64,000 nucleotides of DNA, from contig NIVC01001196.1 in NCBI GenBank assembly GCA_002269645.1, positions 1 to 64,000 on the forward strand, written 5' to 3'. A program made the translations under genes and the position numbers. Positions within the stretch are counted from its first letter, which is position 1, and each line of letters begins with the position of its first letter. This document shows, one piece after another, positions 7,101-61,038 of the stretch. A model generated the notes under the pieces. The model saw nothing but the letters and a program-made list of their open reading frames with translations. It was not told the DNA's origin and searched no databases. The stretch is from Macrostomum lignano. Lineage: Eukaryota.

Positions 7101-7560
7101 GCACTCCTTTTAGCGCCCGCAGGCATTCATTTTGGCGCCGCAGGCACTCCTTTTAGCGCCTCAGGCACTCATTTTGGCGCCGAAGGCACTCCTTTTAGCG
7201 CCGCAGGCATTCATTTGGGCGCCGCAGGCACTCCTTTTAGCGCCCGCAGGCACTCGTTTTAGCGCCCGCAGGCATTCATTTGGGCGCTGCAGGCACTCCT
7301 TTTAGCGCCTCAGGCATTCATTTGGGCGGCGCAGGCACTCATTTGGGCGGCGCAGGCACTCATTTGGGCGGCGCAGGCACTCCTTTTAGCGCCGCAGGCA
7401 CTCATTTGGGCGGCGCAGGCACTCCTTTTAGCGCCGCAGGCACTCATTTGGGCGCCGAAGGTGCTATATTTTGGCCCCCTGAAGAAAAATTATTGATTAC
7501 CACAATGAGTCACAAGGTGAGGCGTGGGGGGACAAAGCATTGGCTCGTAATAATGTAATA
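4150..7560. mobile_element. Non-autonomous DNA element carrying a 21-22-bp minisatellite (GGCGCCGCAGGCACTCATTTT, 4257-7460)
   Basis: Left end CACTGGCGTCGCCATGGATTTTATGGTG matches the reverse complement of the 61038 end of the 59939-61038 element; the sub-terminal GGGGACAAAGC motif and the repeat unit are shared; right boundary approximate. Confidence 0.6.
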
Positions 7561-8586: not shown

Positions 8587-11500
8587 TTAATCCGGGAACC
8601 GCTGTCGAGTTTTGGTTCGATAGACGAGCAGTTTCCAAATGGCAACGGGTTCCTGAATTTATTCAATCGATTTTTAAGACCAATTTTCTACTAAACAGAG
8701 GAAGTGTTACTGTTTCAGATATATTACCTGTATAACGGCCTGTACAGCTACAGGTAAAGTACGGATCGGTGTACGCCAGAGTGCAGGTGCCGCCATTCAG
8801 GCACACAGGCAGCTCAGTGATGCCCTTGTCAGGCTGCAGGGTGAAGCAGTAGTCTGCAGCAGCTGAGCAGTACGGTGCGATGTAGGGCAGCGGGCAGAGG
8901 CAGGGCGGGCTGGCTGTGTAGTTGTTGCAGGTGCCGCCGTTGTAGCAGGTGACTGTTGAGCAGTTCGCAGCCTGAGTTTGAGCTGCAACGAGGTTGTTTA
9001 AAAACTAGTAGTAGGAGTTAGCAGAACACGGCCGCAGGAAATTCCGTGGAAATTCCGTCACTGGTTTACGTACTGGAGAGATGGCTCCTAGAGCCCTGAT
9101 CGCCTAAAACTTACAAGCCTTCGCTGAGTAGCAGGTATGGGGGAAGGATGAGCATTGCAACTACATGTATAGGATTTCATGTAAGCATAAAGCAGCGGTA
9201 GGAGCAGAAAAACGAGAAGCGCGTATGAATAAAATAAATAGTGGGTGCTGTGCGTATGTATATGGCCGTGTCTGACTTTTAAGATGGTATAGAGATGCAA
9301 CTGTTTTTTAATCATTTATGTATAGTAGAAGATACTGAAATTATAATAGGCTCGTATGCTTTTAAAAATTTGCCAATTCGCAGGTTTTTGTTTGCTTACT
9401 CTTTCGGCCTGGAGCTTCTTTTTTGCAAAGTATGGCTGCGCCTTCTTTAGAGATCAATTAAGTTGTAAACTGATTTAAGGTAGCCTTGAATTTTCTCCCC
9501 CTCCAGATAACGCATTGCAGCGAAGTGATATCGGGGTTGTCTGGCTGGCTCGATAGGGGCAATAAAGTTTTGGACTATTACTGTTAAAGATTATATTCCA
9601 AGTTGTTTTCGTCATAAAGCAACGGTTTCTATTATGCATGCGTCGGCATAACGTTTTGAAAAAGGACGAAATGGGCCCTTTCGTTTTTATAAGATAATTT
9701 AATCTTGAGGCCGAGGGTATATGGAGTCTACACTGGCTGCTTGTATTTACTTGTGAATAAAAGACCATTATAAACGTATAACGCTATGCATTGAACTGGA
9801 TCCTATATAAGATCTGCTGGCCCGTTACTGCTGATAGTAAATTTGAAAAGAATATAAATAGAGAGGAGCAGCAGCTGAAGATCAAGTAGCGATTATTAGT
9901 GAATGATTTCAAATTAGAATGTCGTCCGATTGGCAATACGAGGTGTGCATGACTTGTAAAAAATGCAAACAAGGTGGACTCCGACCGGGTCGACATAAAA
10001 ACTGCACGAACGTGACGAAGTGGAGTGTCTGCTGGCAGTGCTCAAAGGTTTCTCTATATGAAGCGAAGAAGAGCGCTAAGCAATCTAAGGCTCATCGGGG
10101 TCACCAATTGCTGCCTGGGACTAAAGACACAGCGCGATCTTTTCGACGAATGGTAATGGGAGCGGCGAGGCGACACATGGAGCATCAAACGGCGGAAGTG
10201 GCAGCAGCCAAGCAGCGATCGAGCGTGCTCAGTCAAGTAATTAATGGTGTAATTCAAGCTCGAAACGACAGCCTAAGTTCCAGCGATGAGTTCGTAGACG
10301 TAAATACTAGAGAACCCTCGATACTTCCTCAGCCAAACAATGGAATGGAAACTGAGACAGCTGACGCAGTGCAAGCCATTGTACCTATTAGACGTGCTCC
10401 ATCCATAAGAGGCAAGCAAATGGTTCAAATCGATAGTTCGATGATTGAAGAAGAAGGCGACGAGATGGAGGAGGACATCGAACTTGACGGCTTTGCTTCT
10501 GCTGCTGCTGGTGTCCCGGTTGGTGCCGACTCAGCTGCTGCTGCTAGTGTCCCGGTTGGCGCCGACTCAGCTGCTGCTGCTGGTGTCCCGGTTGGCGCCG
10601 ACTCTGCTGCTGCTGCTGGTGTCCCGGTTGGCGCCGACTCTGCTGCTGCTGCTGGTGTCCCGGTTGGCGCCGACTCAGCTGCTGCTGCTGGTGCCCCGGT
10701 TGGCGCCGACTCAGCTGCTGCTGCTGGTGTCCCGGTTGACGCCGACTCAGCTGCTGCTGCTGGTGTCCCGGTTGACGCCGACTCTGCTGCTGAGGCTGGT
10801 ATCCCGGTTGGCGCCGACTCTGCTGCTTCAACCAAAATTCCAGCCACAGTCACTGATGCAGCTGTTACTGTTGCAAATGGTCATGATGAGCTCAATGAGC
10901 TGCTAGCATCCATCGACCTGCCAACGACGACGATGACGCCGGCAAATGTTGCTGATATTAATGAAAATGCTGGTGCTAACTATTTTACTTTAAATCTGCT
11001 ATTGCCGCACGTGAGTGGAGTGGCTATGTTGTGCAAGTTGACGGCAATAAAATCACTCTTACCCCGATGTAATTTCCTATTTTATTTTCTCTGTACTCAT
11101 ACAAATTCGTTTTTATTTGGGTTGGTGTGGAGTGTGGACGTTGGTTACAATATATTAGAACCGTGGGTTGGTAAAGCATTCATGAGGATATTGGAGTAGA
11201 AAAAGAAATACTTGTGTGTGTGCACTATCCAAATATTAATATTCAAACGAAACCCATATCAGCTTCTGTTTTGCTCGTAATGGTTTTCAGGACTACTTCA
11301 AATGCTAGGGTGTGTTGCTATAGGGGATATAGGTTGATTAAATGGTTTTTATGATGTACTTTTCACCTAATATAATTGCTTAATAAACTTATTTAATGTT
11401 TCGAACTATTGCTCAGTGTTTTTTATACTTCTGCATGCATGCTGCAATTTCAAATGAAGCTTTTCGAGATAAGCGTGAATCAAACCAAATCAAATTTCAA

Positions 11501-14500
11501 TGTATCCAGCTGCTGTTAATTGTCAGGTAATAAACATTGCATGCCCTACTGAATCAAAATAAACTTGCTAGTAAAGCAAGCTAGCAAGCTCTTAGCGCGA
11601 ATAAGTAAACTTAATCATTAAATTTGCATATTTAAATGAAATATGGGTTTTGTTTTGATTTGAAAACACTTTCAGTCCATTCAAGGCGCTCCAGTTTTGG
11701 TGGACTACGCTAAGTCTGGCGAAGATTGGCCTATGACCAATGAGAGCTGGTCTGAGTTTTGTGAAGAAGAAGAAGACTGGTCTGAGACGGATGACGAAGG
11801 CTGGTCTGAGTCTGATGAAGAAGACTGGTCTGAGTCAGATGAAGAAGACTGGTCTGAGTCAGATGAAGAAGACTGGTCTGAGTCAGATGAAGAAGACTGG
11901 TCTGAGTCAGATGAAGAAGACTGGTCTGAGTCAGATGAAGAAGTAGACTGGTCTGAGCCCAAGGAAGACTTGTCTGAGCCAACTGATGCTAGCAGCAGCA
12001 CTGCCACAAACACCAGCACCAGCATCACCACCAGCATCGCAGGTCACATGGAGAATAAAGACAACGTTGAAAATGAAGGTATGAGCAAGTTTTCTCCTAA
12101 AGTTAGTTGTGTTTCTGAGCTTAATTATCATGATCTTAACCAATAACGAGCGAAAAATAGGATTCTTTGCAAAAGTCTCTCGATGAAAAGAATTTAAAGC
12201 TTCCTATAGCTTAGCCAATTTGAACTGCTTCATGATAAATTATAAGGAAATAATCTAAATCTGAAAAAAATAAAAGAATTCATATCATTAAATGAGTATA
12301 AGTCTGAGTATTACAGTTCAAAATGCACGAAAAAGTGAACTCTTAGAATAATTTGAGTTTGCAACAACCTTTTTAAAAATGCAGGTGGGAACTTCACAAA
12401 CAGAATCATCAGTGCACACAATGGAGTCCTCGAATCCATTCGAATTCGACAACAGCAACGCCAGCAAGCAGAACCTGGCCACGGCCAGGGTGATCATCAG
12501 GCTACTCCAGATGCATTCACCAGCGTAGCAGCTATGAGGTCAAACGTAGAGCGTATTCTATCCGAGAGACTGCTTGACAGGAGTAAATTGGTGCGTGCTC
12601 AATTGAGATTGAATGTACATATGCAGCGAATGAGAGGAGGTGAGATGGTGGCTGAAGAGGATAAGTGGATTAGCGTGCCCATGGGGCAGTTGGATTCAGC
12701 TGATGACTTTGAAGCCTGGTGGACTACTCAAGTGAATGGTTGCGAAAGAGTCATTGAATTGTTAAATACAAACGGTAGCGGCTGGGTGCTTGGTGGTGTC
12801 AACTTTGTTGACGTTTTTGTGTCATACGGTGACCGGATTCGCTACTATATTGGTCATGCTGACAAGTTTGAGCTACCAAGAGATCTTAAAGCTAAGCAAG
12901 CCGTTATAAATCCGCCTAGAAAAAGGTGATGATTGCTTCCTGTATGCTTGCATTGCCGTCTTGCACCACGATGATGACAGAATTCGCAAGGCTCCTCACC
13001 GACTCTCATCCTATCAGGCTTGGCTTCCTGGACTCGATTTGGAAGGAATTCCGAAGCCAATTCAACTTAGCAGCCTTGAACAAGTTGAGAAAAGAAATTC
13101 TAACGTGTGCTTCACTGTGCTGACGTGGAAGAATGGAACAGTGGAAGTTTTAAGACAGCCAAAGGTAGAAGTCGCCGAAGGAAGAATCGTAGTTCCACTG
13201 CTACTTTTTTTCAAAAGCCAACAACTCTGAAAAAGGACATTGGTGTGGGATTGTAAATCTCAACCGTCTGCTCAATAGTCATGATGGACTGCACCAGAGA
13301 AAATGGTGCGAGAGATGCTTGACAGGTTTCAAATCTACTGAGCGTCTTAGTGCTCATCGTGAAGATTGTTACCAATCAAACAGCTGTACGGTGAAAGAGA
13401 TTATGCCCACCAAAGAAAAGAGCATAATGTCCTTTACGAGCTATGAGAAAACAGTTTCTCCACCATTTGTAGTTTATGCAGATTTGGAGTCCTTCAATGT
13501 TCCCATGAACACTGAAATTCCAGCAGGGCTACAAAAAATTTCTCATCATACACCAGCAGCTGCTGGGTATCTGATTGTCCAAAGAGCAGGTGTTAAAGGA
13601 CCTGCACTCAGAGACTCCAAATCAATGTATGAAGCCTTTACAGCCTCTTCGACAGAGAACTGCATTGAGCAACTTCTTCTTTCTCTTGAACAGCTTGCGC
13701 GCGAAATTTATGAGTGGAACAGGAGCCACAGTTATCAGCCGAAGATTATTGATCCAAACGCTCAAAGCCTGTTTGAAGCAGCCGATACGTGCTATTACTG
13801 TCATGAGAAGTTCAATGAGGACACCATTTTAAAGGTTTGGGATCATGATCACCTGTCTGGTGAATTTCGAGGTGCTGCATGCTCCAAGTGTAACATTGCT
13901 GCTCAGCTAAAGCGACGCTATTTACCTGTTCTGTTCCATAACCTAAAGAACTACGACATGCATTTTCTCTTTTCTGTAGCACTGGGAAAAATGAAGCACT
14001 GGCGTCTAAGTGTTGTACCAATTACGACAGAGAAATACCTGTCTCTAACCGCCGAAGTGCAAGTTAATGAAGTCGTTATTCAAGGAAAAACTGTGCCACT
14101 CTATGCCACGATCCAATTTTTGGACTCTTTCCAATTTCTCAGCAGCAGTTTAGACTCTTTTATTAGAGATTTACCGAAGGATGAACGAATCCACACCGAA
14201 TCCCTAAAGGAGTTCTATCCCGCTCTCACTGATGTCACTCTTGAAGCCAAAGGTGTCTTTCCCTATGAGTTTGTACAAAGCACAGCTGAATTGGAGCTAA
14301 ACGAGCTACCACCTCGTCAGGAATTTTTCAGCACCCTCTCAAAGAGTGAATGCACCACCGAGCAGTATGAACGAGCGAGGAGGGCATGGGATGAATTTGG
14401 TGCAGCGAATTTAAAAGACTACATGCTTGCTTACCTCCAGCTTGATGTTAGGCAGCTTGCTGATGTCTTTGAGTCGTTCAGGCGTCTTAGTATTCTAGAT

Positions 14501-17500
14501 GATGGATTAGATCCAGTCCACTTCATATCCACTCCTGGATTATCCTTCTCTTCGGCTTTGAAAAGTACTGGAGTCAAGCTGGAGCTACTAACTGACAACA
14601 CAATGTATAGGATGTTTGAAGAAGGTATTCGTGGTGGTATGTGTTTTGTTAATGTACATCAGGTGGCGATGGAGAAGTCAGCAAATGAGTCAGCATCACT
14701 CATTCCTCTTGATGTCAATAATCTTTACGGTGTTGCGCTATCAATGCAGCTGCCCTACAAAGAATTCAAGTGGGTTGAGCCTGAAGAACTGATGACTTGG
14801 ACTGATGCCACTATTTTGAATCACCCAGACGATGCGCCAACAGCATTTCTGGTCGAGGTTGACCTGATTTGCCCACCCGAAATTCATGACAAAACGAGTG
14901 ACTTGCCACTGGCACCGGAGAAATCCCAACTGGAGTTTGCAGACTTTCCAGAGTTCATGCAAGATCTATGGCAACGTTTGAATCCAGATGGCCATAACTA
15001 TAATAGTTGTAAAAAACTGTTGCTAACTTGCTTTGACAAGCAGAGCTACGTCGTTCACAGCAGAACTCTGAAATTCTACATTGAGCAGGGAATGCTAGTC
15101 GCTAAATTTAAGCGAGCAATACAGTTCTCGCAGGCTGCTATCCTGGATCCTTACATTCGCTAGAATACTGAGCGAAGGATTGCATCAAAGTCAGAGTTTG
15201 AGAAGTTCTACTACAAGCTCAAGATTAATTCGGTATTTGGAAAGACGATGGAAAACGTCAGGAAACGGAGATTGATCAGAATCTGCAATTCCGAGGTAAA
15301 GGCCAGGATTTTGGCTTCAAAGCCCAATTTAAAAGAAGTCATTATCATCAACCAGGACTTGAGCATATTTGAGCTGAGCAAAACAACCGTGTGCCTGGAC
15401 AGACCAATTTACATAGGTCAGTGCGTCCTTGATTTATCTAAGTTGTTTATGTATTCGCTGTGGTACAACAAACTTAAACCGTGGTTTGAAGACGAGAAAG
15501 TTCGGCTACAGCTCTGTGGAGGTGACACAGATTCTTTTTTCCTTTGCATCAGGAATATTGACCCTGTGCAAGAGTTCCTGCAAGAGTTAATCAAAAGGCG
15601 GATTCTTGACACATCAAACTATGTTGACGGCCACCCGCTTAAGTCTACAGAGTTGAAAGCCAAACTCGGTTGTGTCAAGGATGAATCCTGCGGAATTGAG
15701 TACAAAGAGTGGATTCTCCTCCGACCAAAACTGTACAGTTTTCAAAGCTCCGCCGCTGCCGCTCATAAGAAGGCCGCAAAAGGAATTCAGAGAGCCGTAC
15801 TGAAGCAGCAAATTAATCACGCGGACTATGTTGCTGCATTTGAATCATTGAAGACGCTTGATGTTGTTACACACCGAATTGCAAGCCATCGACATGAAGT
15901 GTTCACAATTCGACAGAGGAAGCGAGCCCTCACCATCTGGGAAGACAAACGGGCCTGGATCAGCGCAAATGACAGCCTCCCGTTCGGCCACTTCCGTCTT
16001 GGCCAATCTGATGCACCATCCCGGAAGAGGAAGCGGCCTCCAGATCTTCAACAGTGACTAAACGTGAGGGATGCATCATTGACATTTATTTGAACGACTT
16101 ACGACGATTACATCATTTATTGCTATCCATAATCAAGCCAGTCTAATTCATTTTTTTCATACTTTCGTTTATCGACATTAAATTTCTCGACATTTTCCAA
16201 TCTTATATTATTGTTTATGAGCATATTCAAATTTATTTTAAACTAACGCATAGGCTTTGATTTACTTAAAATATCGCATGACTTAAAATGTACTCGTAGT
16301 TATTTGCTTTATTGCTCTTTTAAACTATCTGATAGCTTTTGTAATACGTTCAACATGCTGAAGTGTAATTGCTATGTTGTCATAGCCCATGTAATTACAT
16401 TCTCATGTTTTTAAGTCGTGTTTCGTTACAAACCTGTCATTTTGCTCATACCGGTAATTTCATCATCGCTCACTTCGTTGGCAACATTTGTGCTGAATCT
16501 GATATAGCTATTTTAACGCACATTTTTCCAATTGGTGTCAGGCAAAGGACCTTTTTTATTTTCCTTTCTTTTGAGCAATATTTAGCACTTTTTATTACAT
16601 CCATTTATTGTTTCCACTGCTGTTTTATGTTTGTCATATGCGTGTTTTAATTGGGAGTGTGTGTGTGTGTATGTGTGTGTTTTCATTAAATAATAAACTC
16701 ATGAAAAGAAGACAGAACGATTCATCTTTATTCATGCAAAAATTAGCTTAGTTATAAGCTTCCTTCTTTCCTAACTGTAATCATTTATTTTTACGCTGAG
16801 TTACAAATTACACGTTTTAATCGCATGAGATCTGTTTGCAATTGAAAAAAAGATCGAGCACCACTTAGAACAAAGGAGCCGCGGTGAAATAGCAAACATT
16901 TACAAAACTTCAGCTTGAAAATTAAAGCAGAAAAAGATTCAGGTTCATACTCAGCTTTTGGTAAATTCATAGACAGTTTTGGTAGGGACAATGCAGAACT
17001 GAGCGAAAGTTGGCCATGAGCAGTAATAGTTTTAATTCGAACACAAATAGTTTGATGAGGCAGCAGTTGAGCCGGCACTCTCCGATGCAGCATAGCCACG
17101 AAGCGACGGGCAGCCCTTTTGGCGTCTGCGTGAGTCTTGGCACCGCAGATGCTCAGTTGCCCAGTAGGGTAGAGTAGCAGAGTCACTCTGGGACTCCGCA
17201 TCCGCTTGATGAGCACCCGGGGCCAGACGGGCCGGTAGATCACATGAGCCATGCTGAGAGCCAGTTCCCGTAGAGGCAGCTGGGCGCCCCTGCCACCATC
17301 CAGCCTCAGATCCACTCCGCCAACCAGATTGGTCACTCTTAGGGCTGCAGCTGGTGGGCTCATTTCGATCCTTGACTTCTTCAGCAAATCTTCTGCTCGT
17401 GTGCCACGGACACTGCTCGCTTCTTAAGTTGATGCAGAACTTTGGCTTAAGCCAACTGTAGTGCAGCAACGAATTTCTCACTGCACAGCCAGTATCTGAA

Positions 17501-20500
17501 TCTTCAGTCGAGGGTGCTCCCAAATCTTCTAGGTTATAAACCTGTCTACCAAGCAGCTCAGTCAGGAAAATAGACTTCCTTTCCCCATTTGTCCAGATCG
17601 GACCACTGGCAATGCTCAGAATGTCTTCCGCCAGTTCCATGTACGGACGGGTTCCATCACTCCACTTAAACTGGTGCACACTCTTTGATAGCTGTCTGTA
17701 GTAAACTCGCATGTCAGGTGAGACTCTCTCCCATGGATACGGAGGTGCGTACACATGGTGAGCAATGCGGTAGCTTCCCGCTCTGATTTGAACAACTGCC
17801 AACTCCTTCACAACAAAGTTTTTGCTTGTGCTGTTGCACGGGAATCCTTGGAAGTCAATGTAGTTCATGATGCAGCTTTCCTTCGAAAATTTCGGAGTCA
17901 GTCCACCTTCTTATATACTTTTCTGGCAGGCAGTTTCAGCCAGGCTGTGTTGCTCCCGTACCCCTTGACTAGACTCGCCTGTTCTTTCTCCAGTTCACCC
18001 CCTCTGCTGGTTACCATTTTCTTCTTAACTGATTTACCAACAGCGGAAAGCGGAACATTAAGCTTTTTCTGCTGCAGCAAATCGATGAACTCGTTCCACC
18101 CAACTGGTTCACGCTCGCATGACGAATCCCTCACTGCGTGCTGAATCAAGTCCAGTATGTTTGAGGAAGGGATTGACGTGCCTGCGATTTCCACCTCCCC
18201 GTTTTCACAAACTCCAATCAGCTCTGGATTGGTGGACAGGATCGTCCATAGACTGCGAGCCCTGGTTTTGAATTTCTGTGGCACCGACTTGCTGATCTTC
18301 TCTTCCCAGGTGCTCATCTGGGGTGTCTCTGTTTTCATCAACTTGGCTTCAGCATTGCGTGCTCCTTCTTTTCCAGCGTGCTTGCGCTTGGCCAGCAAAC
18401 TTTGCATTGCACTTTGGTACATGGCGGTTTTCACATCTTCTGGATAATCTTCGGCATACAAGATGTCATCGCATTTCTTCTGAGCCTGCTTCAAGTCAGC
18501 TTCAGTGCTATTCTCATTTGGCTTCAAATTCTGCATCAACATCTCATACTCTGCTTTAGGAATCAGAACCATTTCTGAAAATTTGTTCATTTTGCTTCTT
18601 CTTCTTTACCAGCTTAAGCAGAATCGGGAGTATTTTGATGAAGCCAGCCTTCAACAAGTCTGTCTTTCTTCTTTGGTGAGTAATTTTTCGAATTATCTCT
18701 TTTGACTTTGCAAGAACAGCTTTTTCATCGAGAGAAAACGATAGATTGTTTTGTAAGAGATTATGGCAGGCCTCGACAAGAAAATAACGCACTTCTTTTG
18801 AACAATTTTTTATCAACAGCCGCTTGAAGCGCACGGTATATTTAGGTGACGCAAGAACCGCAAAAAGACCTTCGTGAGAATCAAGCACTTCCATAGCGAT
18901 GAAAACAATAGCCGATAAAAAACAAGCTTCACTTTATTAAGCAAATACAAGATGGGGTCGCTGGTTGGGCAGAATTCTGGCCCGTACTCGCAGCTCATCG
19001 GGAGTTGATGGGTGAAAGTCTAGGAACAGGTAGGCTCCCCTGTTCTGCGCGGTCACGTGCTTGAACACTGACAGCAGAAAGCCGGGCTTCTCTGTAAAGC
19101 ACTGTCTGCCCAGTGCTGCAATCTGCAGTTGGTCTCTGGGGTTTTTCAAGATAGCTAAATACATTACATTCAAGCTCATTGTTCGCGACTCTTTTCCCTT
19201 GAAAAATATATTCTGAGTCAGCATCACCAAAAAGCACGGCAAGTGATGTGCGATTCCTGTGAAAAAATTTCGCATTGAAGCAGAATTTGAAGTTTCCTCT
19301 ATTAAGTCATCGAAAACAACCAGGTCATTGGGCCTAAGTGCTGCCTCGATGTTGGTGGAAAATCCCTGGCGCAGCTGCACACCTAGGCTGCTCAGTTCTG
19401 CATGGCCTGCCTGTGAGATCCCATAGTACCACAGAACTCTGCCAGGCTTCACATCAAACATGACGTCTCTGTACTGGATCAGGTGTTTGACAAAGGTTGT
19501 TTTTCCTGCATTGGTGGGCCCGCAGACAATCATGCAGCTTCCCTGCCTGAGGCGGAGATCGTAGCAAACTCGCTTTTCTTCCATGTCTAATGCATAAATA
19601 TAGTTCTAGAACATCTTTTTCTTAAGTTGGCTTCAAACCTCTGTAAGATTCTATCATTCAAATGATTTTTTTCATTAGCATGCAAATGCTTCAGAATCCC
19701 CTCAAATGACCGATTGAACAGAAACTTTTGATAAGCAAAATAGATGCAAAACATTCCGCATTTATTAGAGTTAGCACATTGAAATCTGTTTAGATTGTGT
19801 AAGCACTGGAATTGTGCTTACATCGAAGCGAAAAAACAACGGCCTCCTCTCGTCTCAACCGGTTCTATCCAGCCAGACCAGCTCTACACTAAAGGGCAGA
19901 TAACAAAGCTGAGGTTCGAAGGCCAAGCCAGCAGCCTGCGAACGCGTGACACAGTAGACTCGCAGCAATGCTTGGGGGGGGGGGGGTAATAGGGTTGCCT
20001 AACAACGGGACAGAGAAAAATGCTCGAGCGATAACCCTGCCCCGCTCAAACTATGCATTGCTCTTCATTTTGTCAACTAAACCAGTTTGCTTGCTTGACT
20101 ATAAAATACACTGTCTTGAATAATTTGCGGCAGAGAGAGATTCAGAGATGTGAGCCTCACACTCATAACAGGGCCCTCAGAGGCCAGTGTGTTCGAAAGT
20201 CTTTCTGACTTGTGAGCAGAAGATAACAGGAATAAAAACTGTTATAGATTGCTTCGGAGCCAAAAGCCAGTTGTTTTAATCTCTCGAAACAAATTATAAA
20301 CCACAGATAAAATTTCAGGTTCCCAGCCGAGGGAGTTGAACAGCTCAATGCAATTTCCTTGCCCAGCATAGCATACCACCCAGTGACCAAATGAGCCATT
20401 GAGCTGAAGTAGAACAAAAACAAACTTGTTTTCAAGAGAAATTGATGATCGAAATTTTCTTTTTACATTCAAGGACAGAGAATTTTTATAGCGCAAATGT

Positions 20501-23500
20501 AAAGTAATTATAGAAAATTTTTGGCAAGGCAAAATTTTTTTGGCTAGATTGAATAGTTTAATTGCGTCCATGCCAGTTAAGAGGAATAGTCCAGCAAAAG
20601 CTCCCGGTGCTTGGTGACCTCAATCAGCGAGTCATACAGGCACATAGCAATCAGGGACACCGCTTCGTCCAGAGCCTGTCGGAAGCGAATCTCCAGCCGC
20701 AGGTTGCCCTCCTTCTGTCCGTACCACAGAGCCGCTCCCTCGGGTGTGAGATCGAATGCAAACACCGTGGTGTTGTTGGAGAAGAGCTGGTAGGGGATCC
20801 ACGGCACCGAATTTGTGGGGCTTGCAGATTGACAGCTTTTCAGGTAGTGCAAGTATTCTCTTACGAAGGAATTGTTTTCAGGTGTGAAGGCGCCGTGGCA
20901 CACGGTTTCCCCACCTTTCTTTAGAGCCAACCGGCTGAGGTTGAAGCTCTGGAACTGGAACGGGCTCGCGTGATGATGACCGTTGAATGCACGGTGGCTC
21001 ACGAAGGCCAGCATGATGAACTTCGGCAATTTTCCATGAGTGAATCCTTCAATGTTTTTAGATTGGATGTCCTGGGGTAGGATGAAGTTCTGCATTTCAG
21101 TTCGCTCGATGGGATACAGTGCATTTTGGTTTGTCAGCCCCTGCTCATGGGCCAGGCTGATGTGGGGCACCACTTTGACTCGGCGAAGATGCAGAATGCT
21201 GTGAGAGATTTCCATTCGGTATGCCGCGTTGTTTGCATTCGGGCTTCTGATGGCAAAGGCCCCATCGCTGGGTACCAGTTTGATGTGCAAGTGCAGATTG
21301 CTTAGCAGAAACACTGGGCACTGGAAAACATCGCTGAAGAGCGGCCCCGCATACTCCATCCATCGGGATTCCCTGTGGCTCTCCGTGTGCTCTTCAGCTG
21401 CCGAGTTCGGCTCCAGGAAGCCAGCAGGGTAAAGTTTTAGTTGCTGGGCATCGGATGAGCTCATTAGTGCTTTGAAGTACGCATGGTAGGGATAGAGCTG
21501 GTCTCCACCAGACACCACTCGCTGGTTAATGCTTACAATTACATCTAAGAAGGCTGTAGACAAAACAAAATTTTCTGGGTGCACATCACTGTCTCTGCGC
21601 TCGGTGATGATGCCATCTCCATCTCGAACATCCTCCCTCAGCAAACCCCCATCCAGTCTCACAAGGCGGCAGCGAATATAAAGAAAAGAATTAGGCAGAT
21701 CTGTGTATTCATCGGCAGATTGGTGGCAGTCAAATTCAATGGGGGAGTTTGCAGTAATGGAATTTACTGGGTGAATATCAACATAAGTAGCTTTTTCAAT
21801 GCAGGTTTGTAGAACGGGCGTCTTAAATAAATCAAGTCTGGGATTGAATCCGTAAGCCATGTCTATGACAGAGAGTCGAGCACGCGTTTCACAGTTTTCT
21901 TGCTGACTTTTCGCTTTCGCTTTCCTCCGCCTGCTGCATTCTTCTTTGCTTTCGTCTTCCTATTCTTAAGCTTTTTCCCACTAGCCTTGCTTGACCTCTT
22001 ATTGCGATTTCCACCAGTTGCCTTTCGGGTGCCCTTCTTCTTCTTCAATCGTTTCGGACTTGCTTCAGTATTTCTTTTGCGCCTGACGTTGCTAAGCGTT
22101 GAAGATGATGATGTAGCCGCTGGCGGAGGCTGGTATGTCATGATCCCTGGGAAGCTCCCACAGCCATAGAGTGCAGGCTTTTCGTGTGCTGTCCTCACCC
22201 CCGAATATTGCTGGATCAGCTGCTGGTAGTTCATTGAATGCGTTTCTCTCGAATCTGAACTGTGAGCAGAACAGGGCTGTGAGTCTGTGCAATCAGTAGG
22301 CAACCATAGATGTCCCGCAGCTGAACTCGAATGCTGTGAAGAAGACTGATTCGTTGAATCGGGAAGAATATTGTTTTCTTAAATATTTTTGACAGGTAGT
22401 TGCCCCATTGAATGTTGCCGTTCACTCCGACTGTTCTCAACAGGGAGCCCAAGTTGCAATTAGTTGACTCAACGATACTGCAGTGCACATTGATTAAGCT
22501 GGTGCGCGGGCAGCCAATGCAGTGCTCGGACACGCGGCTCCCTGGCTGGATTTTCACAGCCTGGCTTCCAAATCCCAGCCAATGCAGAATTTTGCTGGAT
22601 GGAAGAAACAGCTCTGCTCTCGCAGTGTTGTTGTGCACCACAGTTCGTGAGTTGCGGATTTCGAACTTCATACCGAATTCCCTGTTGCCACTACGCCCCA
22701 TCAGGCCGGACTCATCGGCCTCCATCTCAGACTCCCTGTCACTCATTGCATCAAAGAACAGCGAATCAGAGTTGGCCAGCAGCTCATTCAGGCGCTCTAC
22801 CAGCTCCTCCACTCTAGCAAATCGTCCGGGTTGAAGAACCAGGGCCTCATGCTCTCTTCCATCTGAGACAGTGAAGCAGTAAGGCTCGTCAACATTGAAC
22901 CATGCAGCAGGCGGATGGATTTCAGCCAGACCTGCCTCATATTCCACATTTCGATCCAAGTAAATAGGTGAAGACAGGTAAAAATTAAAGTCACTAGGAG
23001 TACCTTCAGCATGCTCACTGTTAATCAAAATAGTTCGCATTATAATCATAAACTACATGATGAGGGATGTGTCAAAGCTAAACCTTTCTTAAGTCTTTTT
23101 CATCCACCCAGCCTGTCGAATCGTAGCCGGCCCACTTGACAAGATAGCGAATTTTCCCTCTTTGCTTTTGTGTCTTCAACACTTTTTCAATCTCGTATAG
23201 TCGCTGTGAGTCCGGCACCGCCTGCAGCTCGTGCTCGTGAAAGAGGCCTTGAATCTCTTCTCCCTTCATGTCTCGGATCTTGTACATGTAAGGATAATGT
23301 TTCGGAGCTTTTGCAACTACAGTGTACACTTCCTCACTCCAGTTTGCTTTGTACCCTTTTTTGAATAGCCGGGGCGCGTTAGAAATTCTTACAGTTTGAT
23401 TTTCACTGAACTTTGGTTTCCTGACTTTATCCAAAGTTTCTATTGCCTTGCCATCATACAGGTTCATCCACACTTCCGACTCATTTTGCTTGCAAACATT

Positions 23501-26044
23501 TCTTGGCGCCATTCTGATGCTTCTGTGAAAAGTAGCATTGTACGACTTCACTAACTTTGGCAGCACATCTACCCAGTGCAGAGTGCTGTTGTGAGTGAAG
23601 TATCGCCACATTTTATTCTTCAAAGTTCGGTTCCATCTTTCTACAATCGCTGCTTTCTGCTCGCTGTTTGTTTTAAACGCTAAAATGCCATTCTCTATGC
23701 AGCTCTGTCGAAAGCTTGAGTTGACAAATTCTTTCCCCTGATCTGAACGAACTGTTCGCGGCCTGCGCTTCGTTCTCTTCAAAATTGCCTCGAAAGCAGA
23801 CCGCACTTCTCCTGCTGATTTATTCTTTAGTGGCTTGGCCCAAGCAAACTTTGACAGCACATCGATGCATGTGAGGATATACTTGTATCCGTGATTGTAC
23901 TTTGCGAACGGAATCATTTCTACCAGATCCAGTTCCCACTGATCATCCATAGCTCGAACTACAATTGGTGCTCGGGGATAGTTTCTTCTTGATGGCTTAT
24001 GTAAAGTGTAAACTGCCTGTTCGTTAATCCAATTCTTAACAGATTTTTCTCCCACTTTGATACCTTGTTTTCGAGCCTCATTCAGAAGTTTGTTGCAACC
24101 AGAAAAACTGGCAGGCTGCTCGTGATTAAAGAATATCTTTTCCATTTGCTAAAAAAATCAACTGAGACAGCTTTCTTTCCTAAATGCTTAAGGGCCTGCG
24201 ACGAATAAAGTTTGATAGAACAACAGTGTATTTTACATGCAGTAACATATTATACGCTAAAGCAAGCATTTTAGCGGAGCACAACACAGTGATTCGATTC
24301 AGAACAGTTACAGACAAAACAAAAGGAAACTGAGTAAAGTTTAAATGAAATCAAGTTGTTAGTCAAATTGTTGAAAATGAAGTCACGCGAACTTCTGAAT
24401 AAAATTTGATTTTTTTACCACAATTTTTTCTCGATTATTATAATTTTTATATGCGCATGGTAATCAAAGAAATACAAAATGCGAACTATCGCTGTCATTT
24501 AAAAACAAGTTCACTCATCATCTTCGTCCGAGTTCGGCAGCTCGTCACGGGGTATCCACCTCGGCCTCTTGACCGCATCCTGCCTGCGCAGAGCCCACGG
24601 TTGCTTGCGCTTTCTGCTGTTGTTCACCGCAGCCGCATGAGCCCGGAATTGATACCATACCGGATCTTCTTGCAAGTTTGTGTCCTCTGACGGGATGTTC
24701 AGAGGACAGAGGCGTTGAAGTCACCGGCTCAGTAACGATCGTCAGGTCTGTTGGTGAGCGGGCCTCTTCTTCACCCTCATTCGGCTCAGTCTTGACGGGA
24801 AGCTTCACGGTGACCTCTTCATCGTCGTCAGATGAGCTCAGCTCATAGTTCATTCGCATGCTTTGAGAGAGCTCTGCCAGCTGCTTGTCAAACCAACCGG
24901 AAGCGTGCCACAGTTTTTGCCACAAGAGCGGAGACAGAGGCACTGTGTTGCGTCTCAGAAACTCCTCGCAACAGTCCTCGGGCAGTCGCTTCAACCAAAT
25001 TGTTCCTTGTCTAACCTCAATAAACTTGTCAAAGCCCAATTTCACAACCTTGGTTTCACCGCTTAGAGCAGCCTTCACGAGCGAGCGCTTTACCTCCTTC
25101 AGTTTCGCCCACTGATGCGTATTCAGATTGAAGCCGGGAACTCCAGGCTTGAGGCTGGCGCTGCTGCCATGCCGAAAAAACTTCCTTATGGCGATGAATT
25201 TTTGCCCTTCAAATTCCTGCACCTGTACCTTGTAGCCTTCGCCGATGTCCATGATTCACGTGAAGTCTTCAGAGATTAAAAAGTGAAGTATGATCTTAAA
25301 AATGCTTTTCAAAGCTGGCCCTTTTATATCCTCATGGCGGAGTGGGGTGGGTGCCGGAGGGTGGGTGAATGCTAGGAAAGGGTTGGCCAGTATACATTAG
25401 CCTCCGCCACTCCAGATGCACAGCACTTCACACTGCAGGCACAGTGCTGGGCTGATTTCAATTCAAGCAAGCATATTACAAACATAAAACAGCAGCGGCT
25501 CCACCCAATTTCAGTGGCTTTCACTGCGACAGGCCGAAAGAGTAAGCAAACAAAAACCTGCGAATTGGAAAAATTTTAAAAGCATACGAGCCTATTATAA
25601 TTTCAGTATCTTCTACTATGCATAAATGATTAAAAAACAGTTGCATCTCTATACCATCTCAAAAGTCAGACACAGCCATATACATGCACACTATACGCGC
25701 AGCACCACCATTTATTTTATTCATACGCGCTTCTCGTTTTTCTGCTCCTACCGCTGCTTTATGCTTACATGAAATCCTATACATGTAGTTGCAATGCTCA
25801 TCCTTCCCCCATACCTGCTACTCAGCGAAGGCTTGTAAGTTTTAGGCGATCAGGGCTCTAGGAGCCATCTCTCCAGTACGTAAACCAGTGACGGAATTTC
25901 CACGGAATTTCCTGCGGCCGTGTTCTGCTAACTCCTACTACTTAAAGTTCTTACAAGATTTCCTGCAAACCTTTATTGTTGACGATTTCTGGGACTTTGT
26001 CACTCACCTATTAGTGACAGTAGAATGCAAGCCATTGCCATCAT
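8587..26044 (-). CDS. EGF-TM paralog 1 (exons 26008-26044 signal, 8728-8982 double EGF, 8587-8652), first intron interrupted by the Polinton
   Basis: GT-AG phase-1 junctions give MMAMACILLSLI-AQTQAANCSTVTCYNGGTC...CSCTGRYT-GTRCHL; the downstream TM exon (~8380-8560) is not cleanly in frame. Confidence 0.7.
9007..9411 (+). repeat. Polinton left terminal inverted repeat
   Basis: Reverse complement of 25530-25942; outer ~230 bp identical by eye, inner part with several substitutions and an indel. Confidence 0.95.
9853..9860 (+). promoter_or_regulatory. Candidate TATA box of the Polinton left arm
   Basis: TATAAATA 58 nt upstream of the ATG at 9919. Confidence 0.5.
9919..11010 (+). CDS. Polinton left-arm ORF1 (N-terminal Cys/His cluster, acidic segment, 33-bp Ala-rich repeat); probably exon 1 of a spliced gene
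   Basis: 426-aa ORF 9919-11199; CMTCKKC...HKNC...CWQC; ~10x AAAGVPVGADS; phase-0 donor CAC|GTGAGT at 11011, after which the sequence becomes AT-rich. Confidence 0.65.
11676..12078 (+). CDS. Acidic Trp-repeat exon (DEEDWSES repeats, 24-bp unit)
   Basis: ORF 11697-12146 lacks a natural early ATG; phase-0 acceptor CTTTCAG| at 11675 and phase-1 donor AAG|GTATGA at 12079. Confidence 0.6.
12385..16057 (+). pseudogene. polB: Protein-primed family B DNA polymerase (pPolB), interrupted by two +1 frameshifts (~12920, ~13208) and an in-frame TAG (15161-15163)
   Basis: ExoI VVYADLES, ExoII FHNLKNYD, ExoIII YLQLDV, motif A LDVNNLYG, motif B KLKINSVFGKTMENVR, motif C GDTDS, KLGCVKDE; endonuclease-VII-like DHDHLSGEFRGAACSKCN insert. 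Confidence 0.95.
16784..16789 (-). terminator. Polyadenylation signal directly after the TBP-like stop codon
   Basis: AATAAA on the minus strand 1 nt after TAA 16791-16793, followed by the AT-rich convergence zone 16060-16790. Confidence 0.5.
16791..17363 (-). CDS. TATA-binding-protein (TBP)-fold protein encoded by the Polinton, ~190 aa
   Basis: Both TBP repeats align by eye: VTNLVGGVDL...LPLRELA...YRP...LIKRMRSPRVTLLLYPTGQLSICGAKTHADAKRAARRF and AEYEPESFSALIFKL...LLFHRGSFVLSGAR, versus TBP LQNIVSTVNL...[26 protein letters not shown]...AARKY and SSYEPELFPGLIYRM...LIFVSGKVVLTGAK; ATG at 17363. Confidence 0.9.
   Translation of the reverse strand: MSPPAAALRVTNLVGGVDLRLDGGRGAQLPLRELALSMAHVIYRPVWPRVLIKRMRSPRVTLLLYPTGQLSICGAKTHADAKRAARRFVAMLHRRVPAQLLPHQTICVRIKTITAHGQLSLSSALSLPKLSMNLPKAEYEPESFSALIFKLKFCKCLLFHRGSFVLSGARSFFQLQTDLMRLKRVICNSA
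17032..17868 (-). CDS. Polinton accessory DEDD-like exonuclease-fold protein; domain ends ~17430 and the ORF runs on over the TBP-like gene
   Basis: YIDFQGF...FVVKELA...HHVYAPPYPW...WSDG...VYNLEDLGAP...CAVRN pattern, recalled as typical of Polinton accessory ORFs. Confidence 0.65.
   Translation of the reverse strand: MNYIDFQGFPCNSTSKNFVVKELAVVQIRAGSYRIAHHVYAPPYPWERVSPDMRVYYRQLSKSVHQFKWSDGTRPYMELAEDILSIASGPIWTNGERKSIFLTELLGRQVYNLEDLGAPSTEDSDTGCAVRNSLLHYSWLKPKFCINLRSEQCPWHTSRRFAEEVKDRNEPTSCSPKSDQSGWRSGSEAGWWQGRPAASTGTGSQHGSCDLPARLAPGAHQADAESQSDSATLPYWATEHLRCQDSRRRQKGCPSLRGYAASESAGSTAASSNYLCSN
17898..18590 (-). CDS. Conserved Polinton hypothetical protein (230 aa)
   Basis: MVLIP...GEVEIAGTSIPSSNILDLI...PVGWNEF...L.VP pattern, recalled from Polinton conserved ORFs. 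Confidence 0.75.
   Translation of the reverse strand: MNKFSEMVLIPKAEYEMLMQNLKPNENSTEADLKQAQKKCDDILYAEDYPEDVKTAMYQSAMQSLLAKRKHAGKEGARNAEAKLMKTETPQMSTWEEKISKSVPQKFKTRARSLWTILSTNPELIGVCENGEVEIAGTSIPSSNILDLIQHAVRDSSCEREPVGWNEFIDLLQQKKLNVPLSAVGKSVKKKMVTSRGGELEKEQASLVKGYGSNTAWLKLPARKVYKKVD
18556..18894 (-). CDS. Conserved small basic Polinton protein (112 aa)
   Basis: EACHNLLQNNLSFS...LAKSKEIIRKI...GFIKILPILL pattern; canonical position next to the ATPase. Confidence 0.7.
   Translation of the reverse strand: MEVLDSHEGLFAVLASPKYTVRFKRLLIKNCSKEVRYFLVEACHNLLQNNLSFSLDEKAVLAKSKEIIRKITHQRRKTDLLKAGFIKILPILLKLVKKKKQNEQIFRNGSDS
18937..19584 (-). CDS. A32/FtsK-like genome-packaging ATPase
   Basis: Walker A GPTNAGKT, Walker B LVVFDD, LTQNIF and SRTMSLN...KNPRD motifs; AATAAA overlaps the stop codon. 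Confidence 0.95.
   Translation of the reverse strand: MEEKRVCYDLRLRQGSCMIVCGPTNAGKTTFVKHLIQYRDVMFDVKPGRVLWYYGISQAGHAELSSLGVQLRQGFSTNIEAALRPNDLVVFDDLIEETSNSASMRNFFTGIAHHLPCFLVMLTQNIFFKGKESRTMSLNVMYLAILKNPRDQLQIAALGRQCFTEKPGFLLSVFKHVTAQNRGAYLFLDFHPSTPDELRVRARILPNQRPHLVFA
20163..20571 (-). pseudogene. Adenain-like maturation cysteine protease, degenerate
   Basis: GHWV and IELFNSLG motifs in the expected position after MCP; no Q-x-S-x-x-CG catalytic-Cys motif in any frame; ORF stops at 20242. Confidence 0.65.
20577..21860 (-). CDS. Double jelly-roll major capsid protein (427 aa, intact)
   Basis: LDLFKTPVLQTCIE...HPVNSITANSPIEF...EYTDL...LY; YPYHAYF..L; P.FIMLAFV...AFNG...SPFQFQ; FAFDLTP...G.LRLEIRF. 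Confidence 0.95.
   Translation of the reverse strand: MAYGFNPRLDLFKTPVLQTCIEKATYVDIHPVNSITANSPIEFDCHQSADEYTDLPNSFLYIRCRLVRLDGGLLREDVRDGDGIITERRDSDVHPENFVLSTAFLDVIVSINQRVVSGGDQLYPYHAYFKALMSSSDAQQLKLYPAGFLEPNSAAEEHTESHRESRWMEYAGPLFSDVFQCPVFLLSNLHLHIKLVPSDGAFAIRSPNANNAAYRMEISHSILHLRRVKVVPHISLAHEQGLTNQNALYPIERTEMQNFILPQDIQSKNIEGFTHGKLPKFIMLAFVSHRAFNGHHHASPFQFQSFNLSRLALKKGGETVCHGAFTPENNSFVREYLHYLKSCQSASPTNSVPWIPYQLFSNNTTVFAFDLTPEGAALWYGQKEGNLRLEIRFRQALDEAVSLIAMCLYDSLIEVTKHRELLLDYSS
21863..22234 (-). CDS. Lys/Arg-rich putative core (DNA-condensing) protein
   Basis: ATG 22234 overlaps the mCP TGA; LYGCG motif followed by a long K/R-rich C-terminal half; position between penton and MCP. Confidence 0.65.
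   Translation of the reverse strand: MNYQQLIQQYSGVRTAHEKPALYGCGSFPGIMTYQPPPAATSSSSTLSNVRRKRNTEASPKRLKKKKGTRKATGGNRNKRSSKASGKKLKNRKTKAKKNAAGGGKRKRKVSKKTVKRVLDSLS
22231..23049 (-). CDS. Minor capsid (penton-like) protein
   Basis: INS...TPSDF.FYLSSPIYL...YEAGLAEI.PPAAWFNV; INVHCSIVES...LLRTV; IRVQLRD. Confidence 0.85.
   Translation of the reverse strand: MIIMRTILINSEHAEGTPSDFNFYLSSPIYLDRNVEYEAGLAEIHPPAAWFNVDEPYCFTVSDGREHEALVLQPGRFARVEELVERLNELLANSDSLFFDAMSDRESEMEADESGLMGRSGNREFGMKFEIRNSRTVVHNNTARAELFLPSSKILHWLGFGSQAVKIQPGSRVSEHCIGCPRTSLINVHCSIVESTNCNLGSLLRTVGVNGNIQWGNYLSKIFKKTIFFPIQRISLLHSIRVQLRDIYGCLLIAQTHSPVLLTVQIREKRIQ
23078..24145 (-). CDS. Retroviral-type (rve) integrase with C-terminal chromodomain, intact
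   Basis: YTLHKP; D-D-E residues in WELDLVEM / RSDQGKEF / IVERWNRTLK; YEIEKVL...RYLVKWAGY chromodomain. Confidence 0.95.
   Translation of the reverse strand: MEKIFFNHEQPASFSGCNKLLNEARKQGIKVGEKSVKNWINEQAVYTLHKPSRRNYPRAPIVVRAMDDQWELDLVEMIPFAKYNHGYKYILTCIDVLSKFAWAKPLKNKSAGEVRSAFEAILKRTKRRPRTVRSDQGKEFVNSSFRQSCIENGILAFKTNSEQKAAIVERWNRTLKNKMWRYFTHNSTLHWVDVLPKLVKSYNATFHRSIRMAPRNVCKQNESEVWMNLYDGKAIETLDKVRKPKFSENQTVRISNAPRLFKKGYKANWSEEVYTVVAKAPKHYPYMYKIRDMKGEEIQGLFHEHELQAVPDSQRLYEIEKVLKTQKQRGKIRYLVKWAGYDSTGWVDEKDLRKV
24545..25252 (-). CDS. PC4/Sub1-like ssDNA-binding / coactivator protein with tandem PC4 folds and a Ser/acidic tail
   Basis: DIGEGYKVQVQEFEGQKFIAIRKFF...LKPGVPGFNLNTHQWAKLKE matches the PC4 core (VSVREFKGKVLIDIREYW...[20 protein letters not shown]); second weaker copy VKLGFDKFIEVRQG...VPLSPLLWQKL; then SSSDDDEE. 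Confidence 0.8.
   Translation of the reverse strand: MDIGEGYKVQVQEFEGQKFIAIRKFFRHGSSASLKPGVPGFNLNTHQWAKLKEVKRSLVKAALSGETKVVKLGFDKFIEVRQGTIWLKRLPEDCCEEFLRRNTVPLSPLLWQKLWHASGWFDKQLAELSQSMRMNYELSSSDDDEEVTVKLPVKTEPNEGEEEARSPTDLTIVTEPVTSTPLSSEHPVRGHKLARRSGMVSIPGSCGCGEQQQKAQATVGSAQAGCGQEAEVDTP
25321..25328 (-). promoter_or_regulatory. Candidate TATA box of the Polinton right arm
   Basis: TATAAAAG on the minus strand 69 nt upstream of the PC4-like ATG, with G/C-rich boxes at 25337-25410. Confidence 0.55.
25530..25942 (-). repeat. Polinton right terminal inverted repeat
   Basis: Reverse complement of 9007-9411. Confidence 0.95.
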
Positions 26045-55100: not shown

Positions 55101-55192
55101 TTAGGTGGGCGCCCCTGTCTCTTAGGTGGGCGTCCCTCTCTTTTAGGTGGGCGCCCCTGCTGTCTTTTAGGTGGGCGCCCCTGTCTCTTAAG
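49112..55192. repeat. 6-kb GC-rich minisatellite, 21-24-bp unit GGTGGGCGCCCCTGTCTCTTA with recurring variant cassettes
   Basis: Directly visible; the WAPLSLR ORFs are artefacts. Confidence 0.97.
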
Positions 55193-59938: not shown

Positions 59939-61038
59939 CAGGGGCGCCGCCACTGGGGGGGGGGCAGCCCAGTATAAGCTGTGAGGGGGGGACATGCCAA
60001 AGCTTTGTCCCCACCCCACCTTTATGACCCGCTATGGAAATTTTAGTCATTTTGCTTCAGGGCACTAAAATGAGTGCCTGCGGTGCTAAAATGAGTGCCT
60101 GCGGTGCTAAAATGAGTGTCTGTAGCGCTAAACTGAGTGCCTGCGGTGCTAAAATGAGTGCCTGCGGTGCTAAAATGAGTGTCTGTAGCGCTAAACTGAG
60201 TGCCTGCGGTGCTAAAATGAGAGCCTGTGGCGCTAAAATGAGAGCCTGCGGTGCTAAAATGAGTGTCTGTAGCGCTAAAATGAGTGCCTGCGGTGCTAAA
60301 ATGAGTGCCTGCGGCGCTAAAATGAGAGCCTGTGGCGCTAAAATGAGAGCCTGCGGTGCTAAAATGAGTGTCTGTAGCGCTAAACTGAGTGCCTGCGGTG
60401 CTAAAATGAGTGTCTGTAGCGCTAAACTGAGTGCCTGCGGTGCTAAAATGAGTGTCTGTAGCGCTAAAATGAGTGCCTGCGGTGCTAAAATGAGTGTCTG
60501 TAGCGCTAAACTGAGTGCCTGCGGTGCTAAAATGAGTGTCTGTAGCGCTAAACTGAGTGCCTGCGGTGCTAAAATGAGTGCCTGTAGCGCTAAAATGAGT
60601 GCCTGCGATGCTAAAATAAGAGTCTGTAGCGCTAAACTGAGTGCCTGCGGTGCTAAAATGAGTGTCTGCGGCGCTAAAATGAGTGCCTGTAGCGCTAAAA
60701 TGAGTGCCTGTAGCGCTAAAATGAGTGCCTGTAGCGCTAAAATGAGTGTCTGCGGTGCTAAAATGAGTGCCTGCGGTGCTAAAATGAGTGCCTGTAGCGC
60801 TAAACTGAGTGCCTGTTGGCGCCCAAATGAGTGCCTGCGGTGCTAAAATGAGTGCCTGTAGCGCTAAAATGAGTGCCTGTAGCGCTAAAATGAGTGTCTG
60901 CGGTGCTAAAATGAGTGCCTGTGGCGTTAAAATGAGTGCCTGCCGCATCAAAGTGAGTGATAACAACACCGATTTACTCGTAAAAAAGTAGTGTATTGGC
61001 TTGGTATCCCCATCATAAAATCTATGGCGACGCCCCTG
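59939..61038. mobile_element. hAT-like non-autonomous element containing a 21-bp minisatellite (60060-60950)
   Basis: TIRs CAGGGGCGCCGCCA / TGGCGACGCCCCTG (13/14), 8-bp TSD ATCGCCAA / ATCGTCAA (7/8). Confidence 0.75.

Follow-up and report, generated by a model that had tools for sequence, protein, structure and literature searches.

The window is a 64-kb stretch of Macrostomum lignano DNA, and positions 9007–25942 are occupied by a damaged copy of a Maverick/Polinton of 16.9 kb. The left arm carries the protein-primed DNA polymerase gene (pPolB), and the right arm carries genes for a PC4-like protein, an integrase, capsid-type proteins, a protease, an ATPase, an exonuclease-like protein and a TBP-fold protein. 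The hallmark genes of Mavericks are present (pPolB, rve integrase, packaging ATPase and protease), and, with the inverted repeats and putative capsid genes, they are the same as those described for Mavericks/Polintons (adintoviruses) in the consulted part of PMC8502044. Both the polymerase and the protease are broken in the window copy, the former near 12920 and at 15161–15163. The element is bounded and interrupted by the following features; the inverted repeats are about 405 nt each.

9007 to 9411, unstranded: left terminal inverted repeat, beginning AGTAGT
25530 to 25942, unstranded: right terminal inverted repeat
19794 to 20247, unstranded: inserted copy of another repeat (454 nt), disrupting the protease gene; seen from a contig joint 19793–20248 and loose ends

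The target-site flanks of the window copy agree at four of six bases and differ at two; a perfect 6-bp target duplication is found in a sister copy (L031/L032) and none in L033/L034. A TBP with 88% identity is likewise named from Macrostomum lignano, and the genome holds 152 matches to the window TBP, with identities from 99% down to 38%. We retrieved the flanks of 25 other copies, hand-picked across identity classes: 20 from the main lineage and 5 from a distant lineage in which the gene order differs and the capsid is 43% identical.

Several observations concern the genomic setting. One subfamily (L006–L030) comprises about 25 near-identical copies, suggesting recent spread, and contig alleles of run X5 agree with it at up to 21 of 22 sites. 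A single contig links both flanks of the element (9005–25943); it may come from an unoccupied site or from a further copy of the flanking repeat. Long tandem arrays of 20–21-nt units lie around the element at 1706–2979, 4258–7461, 49113–55190 and 60061–60943.

The acidic exon probably belongs to the polymerase gene

The left arm is organized as follows.

9804 to 9860, plus strand: two canonical TATA boxes (at 9804 and 9853), predicted left early promoter; TATA-like sequence before ORF1 in 7/7 copies
9919 to 11199, plus strand: ORF1, with a Cys/His-rich N terminus and then low-complexity repeats (FAM76 E 1.3e-4, below cut-off)
11733 to 12078, plus strand: acidic exon made of tandem repeats that contain Trp, serving as the 5' exon of the polymerase gene; one contig shows its GT..AG joint to 12385
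12079 to 12384, plus strand: phase-1 intron; same phase in copies L052 and L080
12385 to 16057, plus strand: protein-primed DNA polymerase gene with an N-terminal terminal-protein/OTU region (domain names inferred from PMC11071308); a single 1220-codon open frame in L052

An acidic, activator-like exon had been proposed here from the letters alone, and the exon is present: its 115 residues include 50 D/E, 9 W and 2 K. Its observed splice partner is the polymerase. In one contig, from a presumed RNA run, 12078 is connected to 12385 over GT..AG, with zero mismatches and 140 letters on the short side, and the product is in frame with the polymerase N terminus. None of five genomic matches (three full-length and two partial) is an intron-less copy of this join. 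In a subfamily whose acidic Trp repeat is different (L052), a donor and an acceptor of the same phase stand ahead of the polymerase frame. More broadly, acidic, Trp-containing segments that are unlike in sequence occur in three subfamily groups. The exon is short in L082, no long acidic exon was seen in L041 or L093, and a strict donor rule, which may miss some exons, found no upstream exon for L041, L082, L087, L093 or L044. In Polintons, according to the part of PMC11071308 consulted, a terminal protein and an OTU protease form the start of pPolB, so the acidic exon is most likely a variable N-terminal extension of the terminal-protein/polymerase precursor.

A donor-like site in ORF1 (after 11010, phase 0) is compatible with an acceptor-like site before 11676, and this phase compatibility leaves a small opening for an activator isoform spliced from ORF1 to the exon. 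No ORF1-to-exon splice was seen among the contigs, in which the sole splice is that from exon to polymerase. The distant lineage retains TBP and PC4 and lacks both ORF1 and the acidic exon.

Gene map of the right arm

All genes and boxes of the right arm lie on the minus strand and are listed here from the terminus inward.

25321 to 25328, minus strand: canonical TATA box, predicted right early promoter; before PC4 in 9/9 copies
24545 to 25252, minus strand: PC4-like gene, first of the right arm
23078 to 24145, minus strand: retroviral-type integrase with chromodomain; box upstream in 8/10 copies, variant box in the window copy
22231 to 23049, minus strand: minor capsid protein, assigned from position; box at 23086–23092, 8/8 copies
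21863 to 22234, minus strand: basic core-protein-like ORF; box at 22376–22382, 147–148 nt upstream in 5/5 copies
20577 to 21860, minus strand: major capsid protein, assigned by size and position and by what we take to be a major capsid motif; box at 21963–21969, 10/10 copies
20242 to 20571, minus strand: adenain-like protease, 5' part (PF00770 on L051); upstream box 0/10
18937 to 19584, minus strand: packaging ATPase; box at 19619–19625, 9/9 copies
17898 to 18894, minus strand: two conserved Maverick ORFs of 230 and 112 aa; box ahead of the 112-aa ORF in 9/10 copies, missing in the window copy
17908 to 17917, minus strand: box 46 nt ahead of the exonuclease-like ORF, 11/11 copies; also a canonical TATA in the window copy
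17032 to 17868, minus strand: exonuclease-like ORF, no Pfam match, presumably of DEDD type by its appearance; directly precedes TBP in both lineages
17421 to 17427, minus strand: WTAAGAA box 64 nt ahead of TBP, 10/10 copies
16791 to 17363, minus strand: TBP-fold gene, 190 aa, last of the right arm

The capsid ORFs have no Pfam match, and their predicted identities come from size, order and likeness to other Maverick loci. At 17032–17363 the exonuclease-like ORF overlaps TBP codons 1–110 in another frame. Between subfamilies, conservation is much higher in the overlapped half of TBP than in its second half, a difference suggestive of recombination or dual coding.

A diverged viral TBP under purifying selection

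The last gene of the right arm had been read as a TBP-fold protein, and the fold is confirmed. Pfam (PF00352, E 3.7e-24), a PDB sequence search, a structure model (pLDDT 86) and Foldseek all point to a TBP core of two repeats, with a TM score of about 0.8 to solved TBPs. Word-based homologue searches returned five TBP and three PC4 relatives only; a TBP profile search returned eight proteins at E < 1e-30, plus thousands of more distant TBPs without context. The saddle fold is the same as that of cellular TBP/TRF2 and giant-virus TBP-like proteins, but the Maverick protein is only 26–29% identical to host TBP. In a FastTree analysis of 44 rows, flatworm Maverick TBPs form their own clade (FastTree support 99), separate from host TBP and TRF2; since the deep branches of this tree are open, we claim no donor. 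The host TBP and a TRF2-like gene (L075, L076) are each one open frame, present in three copies.

The viral TBP is under purifying selection. Outside the exonuclease overlap, five pairs with the window copy gave dN of 0.15–0.38 against dS of 1.07, 1.29, 2.07 or saturation.

We took the DNA-contact residues from Table 1 of PMC12529657, a source consulted in part, and use yeast numbering. N69, V71, L114, F190 and F207 are kept, and the replacements common to both lineages are F116Y, V122S, T124C, N159T, V161T and loss of P191; an indel leaves F99 without a firm place in the alignment. According to the same source, P191 favors T at the first TATA position (PMC12529657); P191 is lost in the Maverick TBP, and the first position of the WTAAGAA box described below varies. 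The acidic stirrup residues E186/E188 are kept in 12/12 Maverick-type rows, with L189 variable. We take this stirrup to be the TFIIB contact, which is a prediction for the viral protein. A TBP that binds DNA with altered specificity, and that may still work with host TFIIB, would be expected to show such a pattern.

A single-chain PC4-like protein

The first gene of the right arm was likewise identified correctly as PC4-like (PF02229, E 1.1e-7, residues 3–53), and its ssDNA-binding core is that of PC4. Residues 1–65 are 33% identical to human PC4 64–127, and residue 1 aligns to PC4 residue 64. The tandem PC4-like region spans residues 1–137 and is followed by a disordered, partly acidic tail whose frame is unlike that of sister copies. 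With the second repeat included, residues 1–127 form a single-chain PURA/MRP/Whirly-like domain (Z 11.5, rmsd 3.5, 118 aligned against PURA repeats I–II). Human PC4, the phage T5 PC4 homolog, PURA, Whirly and MRP1/2 (PMC7549692, consulted in part) share an ssDNA-binding fold with this protein, which differs in having PC4-type sequence in a single-chain (type I) form and a conserved C-terminal tail of its own. It has neither the N-terminal regulatory half of human PC4 nor the one-repeat homodimer design, as both repeats are in one chain. The core is under purifying selection in 3/3 pairs, and the gene lies behind a canonical TATA, like the polymerase arm, rather than behind the box described below. 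PC4-like proteins of other subfamilies (L051:981–1754 and relatives) carry a conserved C-terminal tail, marked by an LRRQ-type motif and a patch of basic residues, which the window copy lacks.

Strand-displacement replication needs a single-stranded DNA-binding protein (SSB). A PC4 homolog serves replication in phage T5, according to the consulted part of PMC7549692, and the single-chain protein is a candidate ssDNA-binding protein of the element. We consider it fairly likely that SSB activity is its main role. A role confined to replication, raised earlier as an alternative to coactivation, fits the tandem single-chain fold without the N-terminal half; a second, transcriptional role is possible because the consulted part of PMC9600219 places coactivator function and the TFIIB contact in the shared PC4/Sub1 core. 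The label "PC4" in PMC11662393 is a cluster name and is irrelevant here.

A TATA-like box precedes most internal genes

The sequence-only reading held that canonical TATA boxes lie only just inside each inverted repeat and that the late promoters are non-TATA, and we found neither to be the case. The element contains eight TATAWAWR matches, a count that is not by itself above chance (5.2 ± 2.4 in shuffles), and two of them precede internal genes: 24444–24451 (minus strand), about 300 nt before the integrase, and 17910–17917 (minus strand), just before the exonuclease-like/TBP pair. The terminal boxes sit about 390–440 nt (left) and about 200 nt (right) inside the inverted repeats, and it is their conserved position before ORF1 and PC4, judged by eye across copies (7/7 and 9/9), rather than their number, that supports them.

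The internal genes are instead preceded, for the most part, by a TATA-like box, WTAAGAA, which lies 33–148 nt upstream of the integrase, capsid, ATPase, exonuclease-like and TBP genes. Counting boxes no more than 130 nt from the start codon, we found one ahead of the integrase in 8/10 copies, minor capsid in 8/8, major capsid in 10/10, ATPase in 9/9, 112-aa ORF in 9/10, exonuclease-like ORF in 11/11 and TBP in 10/10; none was found within that distance ahead of the protease, the 230-aa ORF or the basic ORF (0/10 each) or ahead of the terminal genes (PC4 0/9, ORF1 0/7), and as the copies are kin, these counts are not independent. The late class of the boxed genes is inferred from gene type. Most main-lineage boxes read CTTAAGAA, and another form, TATAAGAA, is one base from canonical TATA.

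The box is strongly strand-biased. TTAAGAA occurs 7–10 times in the sense and 0–1 times in the antisense orientation in each of six right arms tested (shuffle mean 0.5–0.95, maximum 2–4). Across the whole window the motif is at chance (21 vs 21), with eight of the matches on the minus strand in the interval 17421–24039. Ahead of the integrase the box persists although the intergenic DNA looks unrelated between subfamilies, and elsewhere it falls in different reading frames. A codon artefact was discarded as its origin, since the box occurs in non-coding DNA and in several frames. The strand bias would fit a signal at the RNA level as well as a promoter.

In the distant lineage, [AT]TAAGAA is found six times sense and zero times antisense in four of four near-identical copies, with the same unusually long offsets ahead of the basic and capsid genes as in the main lineage and no box before the integrase or TBP. 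The TAAGAA core is thus common to the two TBP-bearing lineages tested. The control was a third lineage of Mavericks, whose ATPase has at least 150 matches; it was sampled as 16 stretches from six copies, with the ORFs of two inspected. The comparison is of two TBP-bearing lineages with one TBP-less lineage only. None of these stretches had a TBP or PC4 match, there was no sense bias, and the hexamer was present in 2/19 upstream regions, one site touching the ATG. In this abundant lineage (L103, L113, L114), nearly all genes start after a T-rich and then A-rich run that ends at the ATG.

A viral TBP and its own box as a proposed late-gene switch

Taken from the letters alone, the element had been proposed to carry an early-to-late switch in which host TBP fires the terminal promoters and three viral proteins redirect Pol II to the late ones. 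The switch itself is supported by a conserved box that is present at the late genes and lacking at the terminal genes; the PC4 and acidic partners are unsupported. The idea is probably right in a simpler form, a viral TBP and a box of its own. On the sequence evidence, we favor, with moderate confidence, a model in which the viral TBP reads the WTAAGAA box and recruits host Pol II, much as herpesvirus vTBP does with its TATT box.

In this model, host TBP would first fire both terminal TATA promoters, giving ORF1 and the polymerase on the left and the PC4-like protein on the right. The first viral TBP could arise by read-through, or else because host factors weakly recognize the box that precedes the exonuclease-like/TBP pair, and viral TBP would then amplify its own promoter and the late promoters. 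Bound at the box, it would recruit host TFIIB and Pol II, turning on the capsid, packaging and integrase genes, while the PC4-like protein would most likely coat the displaced strand during protein-primed replication.

It is also conceivable, but unlikely, that the box is a weak TATA for host TBP or another host factor and that the viral TBP does something else, for example acting as a competitor for host initiation factors or as a DNA-bending protein in replication or packaging. Host TBP may read TATAAGAA, because it is one base from canonical TATA and wild-type TBP has been crystallized on a G(-26) variant (PDB 1qn5, record consulted in part). In the window copy, moreover, the box of the exonuclease-like gene is a canonical TATA, and the TBP gene itself stands behind the box in 10/10 main-lineage copies, so something else must read it first. 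Against this, the prevailing CTTAAGAA form departs more from the consensus, canonical boxes are retained at the terminal promoters, the box is missing from the TBP-less lineage, and the TBP substitutions cluster on the DNA-binding face. For a comparison of TBP preference, viral beside host, the sequences named are CTTAAGAA, TATAAGAA and TATAAAAG.

We regard as improbable the fuller arrangement first proposed, in which late promoters are controlled jointly by viral TBP, the PC4-like protein as coactivator and an acidic activator, such as a product of ORF1 spliced to the exon. In its favor, TBP and the PC4-like gene are together in 21 of the 25 retrieved copies, across both lineages (three of the others are cut by contig ends and one is truncated), and L121, an unrelated Maverick from a metagenome, also has both. 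Segments rich in acidic residues and containing Trp are found, with differing sequences, in the three subfamily groups, the ORF1 donor is phase-compatible with the exon acceptor, and the shared ssDNA-binding region is essential for coactivation, with Sub1 interacting with TFIIB (PMC9600219, consulted in part). Against it, the sole splice seen takes the exon to the polymerase, no long acidic exon was seen in L041 and L093, and the distant lineage lacks both ORF1 and the exon. The PC4-like chain, a fused tandem without human residues 1–63, fits an SSB, and among 21 metagenome TBP loci, which are mostly short, a PC4-like gene was found in only one.

A single long transcript of the late block from the right TATA, with the box as an RNA-processing or translation signal, is very unlikely. 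Genes in the block abut or overlap, acceptor-like AG sites stand ahead of several start codons, and contigs cross the block. These contigs come from runs that we guessed to be RNA (no listed run is recorded as RNA); the abundant subfamily is evenly covered, and coverage extends over the inverted repeat and the convergent spacer; the contigs may therefore reflect DNA and are uninformative on start sites or polycistronic structure. Furthermore, the box is followed by purines with no pyrimidine tract, it is not AATAAA, and a dedicated TBP would be left unexplained.

The TAAG core of the box presumably resembles the baculovirus late motif. That a larger helper virus reads the box with its own transcription machinery, by analogy with virophages, which are described in a partly consulted source as sharing late promoters with their helpers, is nevertheless hardly credible, given that no helper is known for the element, that main-lineage offsets of at least 33 nt suit a TATA-like element better than an initiator, and that the element encodes its own TBP.

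Relation to herpesviruses and other Mavericks

By analogy, the viral TBP and its box would work like herpesvirus vTBP, although the element is not a member of the herpesvirus system. In the consulted part of PMC12529657, herpesvirus vTBP acts with TATTWAA late promoters. Like the proposed Maverick system, that of beta/gamma-herpesviruses (KSHV ORF24) has a TBP fold encoded by the virus, structural genes with a non-canonical TATA-like box, early genes with host-like promoters and the use of host Pol II (PMC12529657). ORF24 differs in being about 750 aa long, binding Pol II directly, working with five other viral factors and being predicted to exclude TFIIB (PMC12529657). The Maverick TBP, in contrast, is a bare 190-aa core without the extra Pol II-binding and DNA-binding domains of ORF24; it retains the acidic stirrup, and the associated box is WTAAGAA.

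A TBP in such elements has been noted before: in the Fig. 5 legend of Starrett et al. 2021, a gene of MELD viruses that have an adintovirus-like PolB is labeled "TBP" (PMC8502044, consulted in part), and the preprint of that paper carries the label too. The text of PMC8502044, in the portion consulted, gives this gene no promoter box, selection test or late-switch model. Among the search listings and paper texts covered, we found no account of a Maverick TBP with a matching box. The consulted portions of further papers do not mention TATA, and TFIIB is mentioned in one only, for giant viruses.

A metagenome scan with four divergent TBPs gave 21 loci, 10 of them with Maverick core genes. At seven loci the ORF directly after TBP starts like a TFIIB zinc ribbon; of five such ORFs tested, three match the TFIIB repeat (E 6e-5 to 1e-3) and five the ribbon (E 0.004–0.14), all below cut-off, and TFIIB is the best PDB match (E 0.044). 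L121 has TBP together with the PC4-like gene (Pfam E 6.6e-5, below cut-off). TBP is therefore the recurrent part, with companions that differ among loci. The TAAGAA box was not seen at the metagenome TBP-bearing Maverick loci, one metagenome TFIIB-like protein used as a query had no match in the M. lignano genome, and IMG/VR scans with queries A1 and P0071 gave no relatives.

We suggest only tentatively, at somewhat less than even chances, that many animal Mavericks use a minimal late code, consisting of a bare viral TBP and a lineage-specific TATA variant (WTAAGAA, possibly TATTWAA in L121), joined by a viral TFIIB in certain lineages and by a PC4-like helper in others. This bears on how Mavericks schedule their gene expression and on whether those of animals go through a genuine viral cycle. 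If the model is correct, no smaller viral takeover of Pol II initiation is known, and these endogenous elements would have a timed viral cycle. It would also parallel the herpesvirus late system with far fewer parts, showing a TBP surface that changes with its box. A one-protein, one-box switch is directly testable in a laboratory animal with about 150 TBP-bearing matches.

Three minor observations concern the metagenome loci. In L121:1200–7800, TATT[AT]AA, which resembles the herpesvirus late box, occurs five times sense and zero times antisense, each site within about 155 nt before a gene start, a post hoc count in one copy. In L129, L131–L134, L136 and L138, the TFIIB-like gene after the TBP-like gene encodes 200–237 aa (e.g., L134:1057–1710). 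Finally, L120:2065–3582 holds a tandem pair of TBP-like genes after capsid, protease and exonuclease-like genes.
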